Assembly (NCBI GenBank): GCA_963771045.1
Contig: CAVYRW010000004.1
Span: 1,536,001 to 1,600,000 of the forward strand
Origin: Waddliaceae bacterium
Lineage (GTDB): Bacteria; Chlamydiota; Chlamydiia; Chlamydiales; SLFE01
Length of the DNA stretch: 64,000 bases
Direction: 5' to 3'
The notes beneath the pieces were generated by a model. The model worked only from the letters and a program-made list of their open reading frames with translations, was not told the origin of the DNA and did not search any database. Positions 50,140 to 51,350 of the stretch are shown here, in pieces. Both the position numbers and the translations under genes were made by a program. Numbering within the stretch: position 1 is the first letter of the stretch; each line of letters starts with the position of its first letter.

Positions 50140-50595
50140 ATGAAGGAATCATGGTCGACATGGGCATTCCGCCATTTTTTGAACTGGTACCCCTGCTACC
50201 GGGGAACCGGCGGCAAAGTGGTCTTCATCGCATCCGACTGGCATCAAGTGCGGGTCAAGCTCCCCTTAAATTGGAAAACCCGCAATTACGTAGGGACCAT
50301 ATTCGGAGGAAGCCTTTACGGATCTGTCGACCCTCTCTACATGCTGATGCTGATCAAAATCCTGGGACCCGATTACATCGTTTGGGACAAGGCAGCCGGC
50401 ATACAATTTAAAAGACCCGGCAAGTCCACCCTCTACGCAACAATGAACCTAACCCCTAACGAGATCGAGAAAATAAAAAAAGACCTCGAAACGCAAAAGT
50501 CGATCGAATTGACCTACACAATCGAGCTGGCAGACAAAGATGGGATCGCCACTGCCAGCGTAGAAAAACTCATCTACATCCGCAAAAGGATCTAA
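50140..50595 (+). CDS. DUF4442 / PaaI-like hotdog-fold protein
   Basis: TRNYVGTIFGGSL...DP, YIVWDK. Confidence 0.85.
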   Translation: MKESWSTWAFRHFLNWYPCYRGTGGKVVFIASDWHQVRVKLPLNWKTRNYVGTIFGGSLYGSVDPLYMLMLIKILGPDYIVWDKAAGIQFKRPGKSTLYATMNLTPNEIEKIKKDLETQKSIELTYTIELADKDGIATASVEKLIYIRKRI

Positions 50596-51350
50596 AATAG
50601 TATACACATGCTTTTAACGACATATGCAATGGAAGCAGCTGTCATTTCAGATGGAGGGGGAGCCGCTTGCTCTCTGTCATTTTGTCCTTGATTAGGTAAG
50701 TCAATTTCTAATAAATACTGTCCTTGCTGAAGGGTTTCCCCCTTTGATTACATCCATGAGCGGCTTAAACCGACAGTCCAATGTTACAATTGTTTTCCCA
50801 TCGAGTTTCATTTCACTAACGCGAAAATCGGAATGCAAAGTAAGGGGGAAAGGCTTAGGAGTGTGATCACTGCCTAATAAAAGGGATCTAGGCGAAGTAT
50901 TGATTTAACTCTGAGGAAGGGACATTTATTTTGATCTATGCCAATAAGGAATGCTTTATCTTCAGGCACGTGCATTGAAGACGCGGGGTCTTGGGGATTG
51001 AAGTCATAGCCTATCGCATCGGGATATTTTTTGATCACTTCGTCGATAAAACCAGTTATCCTCCTTTTGTTAGTTTTTGGCATTTTTAGCGCCTCATCAA
51101 ATGTCATCAGACATACCGACTTTTCTCCCCATGTCATCTCATCGGGTTTTTCAATGACCCCCCGGCTCACGCAAACTACCTTCCAAAGAAATTCATCTGG
51201 AGTCTTCTGAAGCCACTCCCTGCAATCAAGCGGAGTCGAAACTTTATCTTGAAGGTCTAAATAGTCAAAAATCGGAATCAGCAATGCATCGGGCAATTGA
51301 TCGACCATAGTTCTAGCCAAGTTGGTTGTAGTTATTGGCTCGATATTCAT
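50592..51350 (-). CDS. F-box protein; reconstructed full length about 252 aa ending in CaaX (CILF)
   Basis: N-terminal LPDALLIPIFDYL...CREW F-box with GGAGG RBS. Two compensating homopolymer indels (50879-50882, 50738-50742) extend the frame to ...KSMCILF*. Confidence 0.7.

Follow-up and report, generated by a model that had tools for sequence, protein, structure and literature searches.

The locus and its reading frames

The window is a stretch of 64,000 nucleotides from an uncultured soil bacterium of the Waddliaceae and corresponds to positions 1536001-1600000 of contig C4 in genome G000, which comprises 2.57 Mb in 5 contigs. Positions given below without a contig name are those of the window. 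The gene under study lies on the minus strand, where it is read in three frame pieces; its orthologue in the same-genus genome G001 is a single open reading frame (ORF). The features are the following:

50595..51350, minus strand: F-box/CaaX gene, whole coding region, in three frame pieces here and as one ORF of 253 amino acids in the orthologue
51355..51360, minus strand: ribosome-binding site AGGAGG, read directly, 4 bases upstream of the ATG at 51350-51348
51350 to 50877, minus strand: piece 1, the F-box ORF of 158 codons, ending at TAG 50876-50874
51168..51302 (C4:1587168-1587302), minus strand: F-box domain, residues 17-61, Pfam PF12937, 26.8 bits
50869..50883, minus strand: first frame break, including TAG 50876-50874, as identified between the window and G001; absent from the covering contig (50739-51022) of the soil metagenome X1
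50752..50874, minus strand: middle piece in the shifted frame, GSDHTPKPFPLTLHSDFRVSE...DVIKGG..., aligning to residues ~162-200 of the G001 protein
50738..50742, minus strand: second frame break, a G5 run, the window being one base longer than G001
50607..50744, minus strand: C-terminal piece with a Pro-rich linker (...EQAAPPPSEMTAAS...) and a short hydrophobic stretch, 74 % identical to G001
50595..50606, minus strand: CaaX box Cys-Ile-Leu-Phe, with the stop 50594-50592 directly after it; Cys-Leu-Leu-Phe in G001
50140..50595, plus strand: convergent DUF4442 thioesterase-like gene whose stop overlaps that of the F-box gene; a neighbour, given as context only

The frames are those described in an earlier note on this DNA: the F-box ORF ends at 158 amino acids on the minus strand, and the positions named there for the T4 run (50879-50882) and for the G5 run (50738-50742) are correct. 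The shifted frame of the middle piece meets a stop at 50703-50701. From 50747 the first frame is open once more, and the third piece, SKGETLQQGQYLLEIDLPNQ...AYVVKSMCILF, ends there with the stop 50594-50592. Being opposite, the two shifts compensate each other; joined, the pieces would give ~252 amino acids, the length of the continuous protein that had been predicted. The repair proposed for it was one of two run-length corrections; the two cancelling breaks were recovered, but a simple run-length error at the first of them is not supported by X1. The convergent arrangement of the DUF4442 and F-box genes is the same in G001. A promoter and terminator scan of 50300-51800 gave counts at or below the shuffled expectation.

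The orthologue and the origin of the frame breaks

A single DNA match was identified among 40 relatives, at 87 % identity, in G001. The orthologue is an unbroken ORF of 253 amino acids (L003:1546-2307) in the syntenic place, flanked as in the window by a gene of 457 amino acids and by the DUF4442 gene, and it ends in ...AYAVKSMCLLF followed by the stop. The three window pieces align in order to this ORF with 86, 49 and 73 % identity, or 87, 77 and 74 % in local alignments. The middle piece is 77 % identical over 30 aligned residues with a dN/dS of 0.38, and the C-terminal piece is 74 % identical over 50 amino acids, CaaX codons included, with a dN/dS of 0.55; each of the three pieces stays below 1 against G001 (0.28-0.62). 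The neighbour genes have values of 0.05-0.11, so by this measure the F-box gene evolves 3 to 10 times faster. In piece 1 (50877-51350 against L003) dS is 0.15, about half of the neighbours' 0.33-0.47, yet dN is higher, the counts being small. Because the G001 orthologue is unbroken, the pieces align to it and dN/dS is below 1, the view that homologues end at 50874, which would have made the stop genuine, fails: the sole orthologue found continues to 253 amino acids. Judged from these alignments the gene model is rescued by the G001 orthologue and the three-frame pattern is more than chance.

The F-box gene is one of seven frame-split genes among the 20 G001 ORFs of at least 150 amino acids that have a place in the window. 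The others are UvrD helicase (~63400), PfkB kinase (52750-54065, in three frames), the 457-aa gene (~52051), a 280-aa gene (49216-50069, in several pieces), the end of malate dehydrogenase (~47008) and citrate synthase (~46695). All seven are whole in G001. Public metagenome runs were compared with the window as well. X1, a soil-metagenome run, contains 0.48 of the sampled words at a depth of ~3, and X2 and X3 contain next to none. On positions 44001-64000, 20 of the 36 X1 contigs are at least 99 % identical to the window. Length differences between X1 and the window were identified at 46919, 47011, 49798, 50871, 56675 and 63403, and five of them match indels between the window and G001 that are not multiples of three (46917, 47008, 49800, 50869-50883 and 63412). 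X1 has none of the five frame breaks that its contigs cover, and each time the frame of G001 is restored. At the first break of the F-box gene, a few bases from the T run, X1 and the window differ by two bases in length and by one substituted letter; its contig 50739-51022 is in frame with G001, and the letter that makes the TAG differs, so that the stop is absent. The second break falls between two X1 contigs, one ending at 50730 and the next starting at 50739, and the contig 50440-50730 carries the CaaX codons unchanged. The window may have been assembled from the X1 sample itself, and X1 therefore does not count as separate evidence for a second strain.

Both frame breaks are probably assembly errors. 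Of the 48 indels between the window and G001 that are not multiples of three, just 3 consist of one base in a run of at least 3, so that as a set they are not classic run-length errors. In the organism itself the gene is quite likely unbroken, though the second break lies outside the coverage of X1. Breaks that are real in this strain would leave a pseudogene, or a 158-aa F-box fragment acting perhaps as a Skp1-binding decoy. Such a reading can point to the presence of both breaks in the assembly as given, to the second break (the G5 run) beyond the X1 contigs, to the location of most indels outside homopolymers and to the birth and death by which chlamydial F-box families are described to evolve (PMC4209131). 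It is nevertheless improbable: adjoining housekeeping genes such as UvrD, citrate synthase and malate dehydrogenase are also hit, the breaks absent from X1 include the first break of the F-box gene together with its stop codon, and the pieces beyond that stop keep the dN/dS values given above (0.38 and 0.55). Programmed frameshifting was considered and rejected because the same type of break recurs in 6 neighbour genes, while neither X1 nor G001 has it. As the breaks are best read as assembly errors and not as biology, there is no place for the story of a "reconstructed" pseudogene. With so many frame-breaking indels in this assembly, the short ORFs found in it should not be taken as truncated genes.

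The F-box domain, the orphan part and their genomic setting

The F-box-like family PF12937 was identified with 26.8 bits in the window ORF and 29.9 bits in G001 (cut-off 24.3), and PF00646 with 18.7 and 17.4 bits, below its cut-off of 20.5. In a phmmer search of the PDB with the G001 orthologue the best match was the Skp2 F-box 1fs1_A, from the Skp1-Skp2 complex, with an E value of 3.4e-4. Other Skp2 chains and those of Fbxw7, Fbxw8 and beta-TrCP came next, every match covering residues 10-67. The AlphaFold model has helices at 11-18, 21-30, 40-49 and 52-62 with a pLDDT of 70-86, the sole confidently folded part. On these matches the protein belongs to the F-box family. It shares with eukaryotic Skp2-type proteins the motif LPxxLL..IF..L......C..W......LW and differs from them in its bacterial origin, in its CaaX tail and in having neither an LRR nor a WD40 substrate domain.

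Apart from the 158-aa ORF of the window itself, a word-indexed search of 5.8 billion proteins found solely the orthologue. Five matches were obtained with phmmer among 1.84 billion representative proteins, one being again that ORF and the other four confined to residues 12-87. When 400 genomes of the order were searched in six frames with residues 88-253, real matches were confined to G000 and G001; the marginal ones in G123 and G351 belong to a membrane protein without relation to the query and to a methyltransferase-like ORF, and were rejected. Residues 63-253 had no usable match in the ESM Atlas and no relative (blastp, phmmer) among 92 F-box ORFs of five relatives. Pfam, at E values up to 1, placed in the 253-aa orthologue the two F-box families only and no ankyrin repeats, in agreement with the non-ankyrin domain that the earlier note had proposed for the middle part, which has no Pfam family. 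The AlphaFold model, built on a 4-row alignment, has a mean pLDDT of 44.9, and therefore the middle and C-terminal parts are without a usable model; a Foldseek search of the PDB with the whole low-confidence model gave nothing at E <=0.001. Across the databases searched, the ~165 residues after the F-box are a genus-specific orphan.

Genome G000 contains 29 F-box-like matches, 25 of them above the cut-off, and one SctV/FHIPEP export-gate gene. Five relatives of the family contain 22, 15, 16, 6 and 49 F-box-like matches, and in 2 of 14 control genomes the Pfam F-box-like family gave sub-threshold matches. Bacteria are not known to have Skp1 or cullin partners, and this argues against a protein that is not delivered to a host and whose F-box-like fold serves a bacterial function. 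The matches in the control genomes are what such a protein has in its favour. A score above the Pfam cut-off, best structural relatives that are eukaryotic SCF F-boxes, and an organism whose phylum is obligately intracellular and known for its F-box expansions (PMC4209131) all stand against it, and we consider it very improbable.

The chlamydial expansion has been described as comprising 376 F-box proteins (Domman et al. 2014, PMC4209131). The gene studied here resembles the chlamydial F-box families in being multi-copy (29 in G000), fast evolving and placed at a variable locus. With the NEX and PEX expansions of the Parachlamydiaceae it shares a eukaryote-like N-terminal F-box and an environmental chlamydial host genome, but in those families, as presented in PMC4209131, LRR, TPR or BTB-type repeats accompany the F-box, whereas the Waddliaceae protein has the orphan part. 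The terms "CaaX" and "prenyl" have no occurrence in the main text of that paper.

The slot behind the conserved 457-aa gene (window 50140-52796; L041, L042 and L043) differs between Waddliaceae genomes. The genus of G000 and G001 carries the F-box and DUF4442 genes in it. In G003 a 230-aa gene and queC come straight after the 457-aa gene; in G004 an OTU-like ORF of 359 amino acids (GDGNCFFNA motif) on the opposite strand comes next; and in G002 other ORFs of unknown kind. Among the F-box ORFs of G000, six of ~290-300 amino acids share the C-terminal GV(A/V)(P/S)QRKF and form a paralogue family with a conserved tail (C3:60940, C3:63462, C2:85771, C4:2228743, C4:2229917 and C4:2234871). Similar endings (GVAALKTF, GVVALRKF and ...GRRKF) occur in G003, G005 and G001. 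Two further F-box ORFs of G000, C4:2213893-2214018 and C1:20333-20464, end in ...VVLLSSFIFWMRNSG and ...VIVVLFFLVLVLCQH, which are plainly hydrophobic; these ends are possibly tail anchors, another route to membranes.

The CaaX tail and a possible host lipidation

The end of the protein, Cys-aliphatic-aliphatic-Phe with a direct stop, is shared by all three sequences available (G001, X1 and the window), the one change being a conservative I/L exchange, and a Pro-rich linker lies upstream of it. The conservation extends over the whole last 19 residues and not over the box alone, and it is that of three closely related sequences. A Leu or Phe at position X is described to direct geranylgeranyltransferase I (GGTase-I), four residues being sufficient (PMC12493179). 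The CILF end claimed for the protein stands, and the orthologue keeps a canonical end in CLLF; the tail is, on the other hand, not rare enough to decide the matter alone. CaaX-like tails were identified in 9 of the 2374 ORFs of at least 100 amino acids in G000, ribosomal protein S8, a dCTP deaminase-like ORF and a transposase-like ORF included, and a Cys at position -4 in 42 of them. The chance expectation is of ~0.5 CaaX-like cases among the ~110 to 140 F-box ORFs of six genomes.

Paralogues combining an F-box with a CaaX box, which the earlier note had suggested looking for, were absent from the other F-box matches of G000 (0 of 28). In the five relatives, 92 F-box matches lie above the cut-off, orthologue excluded, and 83 have complete tails; one of these is CaaX-like (CVLY, with a doubtful X) and five more have a Cys at -4. 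The latter residue is thus present in 6 of 83 tails against 42 of 2374 ORFs (Fisher p 0.005), but the background was taken from a different genome and the relatives are not independent of one another, so the excess is just a hint, namely that host lipidation may be in wider use among Waddliaceae F-box proteins. The F-box ORFs with Cys at -4 in the relatives include L057, L062, L074, L093 and L118, from G004 and G005.

Two more tails were observed in G000. A 135-aa ORF at 45058-45465 on the plus strand, ~5 kb from the F-box gene and without a Pfam family, ends in ...KASLCILY, a tail also present in G001. Outside the window, C4:1698083-1699234 (plus strand) ends in the CaaX-like ...PLPPSEECILS, and the letters PPSE before this tail are the same as in the linker of the F-box protein. 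From its HExxH motif we take this second ORF to be thermolysin-like, the family name coming from reading the sequence.

Two readings of the tail have to be weighed. In the one we prefer, for which the prospects are nearly even, the protein would act as an F-box adaptor in a eukaryotic host, into which it would be secreted; there its N-terminal F-box would bind and recruit Skp1, and host GGTase-I would geranylgeranylate the cysteine of the C-terminal CILF/CLLF box. The lipid anchor would then place an adaptor of the SCF ubiquitin ligase on host or inclusion membranes, with the orphan part of the protein as its presumed substrate-binding part. The effector role assumed here accords with the many F-box genes of G000 and its relatives, with the SctV/FHIPEP gene, with the faster evolution of the F-box gene and with its place in a slot that varies from genome to genome. 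Of the interpretation first given for this locus, the sequence-level part holds; the functional part, namely secretion, Skp1 binding, prenylation, membrane anchoring and any substrate, is what we infer.

In the other reading, possible but rather doubtful, the gene is intact and the protein likely a secreted F-box adaptor, its CILF/CLLF being fortuitous or the end of a hydrophobic or amphipathic helix; the protein would be soluble, or would bind membranes without a lipid. The base rate of CaaX-like ORF ends, housekeeping proteins included, is in line with this, and so are the scarcity of such tails among the other F-box proteins of G000 and of the relatives, the overall hydrophobic character of the last 19 residues (SEMTAASIAYVVKSMCILF) and an AlphaFold helix of low confidence at 239-252. 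The two paralogues with plainly hydrophobic ends (C4:2213893 and C1:20333) point the same way, as they imply that other ways of anchoring exist in the F-box family. A fortuitous tail accords less well with a textbook-like box, having aliphatic residues at a1 and a2 and Phe at X, and with its retention in each of the three sequences through a conservative exchange. Moreover, prenyltransferases are reported to need just the last four residues (PMC12493179, PMC2916131), so that a box exposed in the host cytosol would likely be modified, whether selected for or not.

The nearest known parallel to a geranylgeranylated F-box adaptor is AnkB (LegAU13/Lpg2144) of Legionella pneumophila, which does combine an F-box with host prenylation, as had been stated when the locus was first described (PMC7542358, PMC2916131). 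Its box, CVLC, is reported to be farnesylated by the host and to be needed for anchoring at the vacuole and for the decoration with polyubiquitin (PMC2916131, PMC7542358), and for a reporter its last four residues suffice to bring about farnesylation and re-targeting (PMC2916131). Both proteins are small, with an N-terminal F-box and a C-terminal CaaX box. The chlamydial protein, in contrast, comes from a different phylum, has no homology to AnkB outside the F-box and no ankyrin repeats, would likely depend on type III secretion instead of Dot/Icm, and has a Phe at position X that predicts a geranylgeranyl group where AnkB carries a farnesyl. By this analogy it may be AnkB-like in its working, without being a homologue or a member of the same family.

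Host prenylation is also known from Salmonella, SifA being a host-prenylated effector. The other Legionella CaaX effectors resemble the chlamydial protein in that a short C-terminal eukaryotic motif lipidates an injected protein (PMC7542358). The domains of these effectors, as well as those of SifA, are unrelated to its own. Prenylated chlamydial effectors were absent from the titles and abstracts found, and supplements such as Table S1 of PMC2916131 may list chlamydial CaaX candidates. The protein could accordingly be proposed, at somewhat less than an even chance, as the first chlamydial effector to hijack host geranylgeranylation, a lipid-anchored F-box adaptor evolved independently of AnkB. 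That proposal, equally tentative in this part, includes a genus-specific substrate domain of unknown fold and a location at inclusion or host membranes.

Should the tail be in use, an F-box would have been combined with a signal for host lipidation twice, independently, in two unrelated intracellular lineages, Legionella and an environmental chlamydia. Membrane-tethered hijacking of SCF would then be a general solution and not a peculiarity of Legionella, and prenylation would join the ways by which chlamydial effectors reach membranes.
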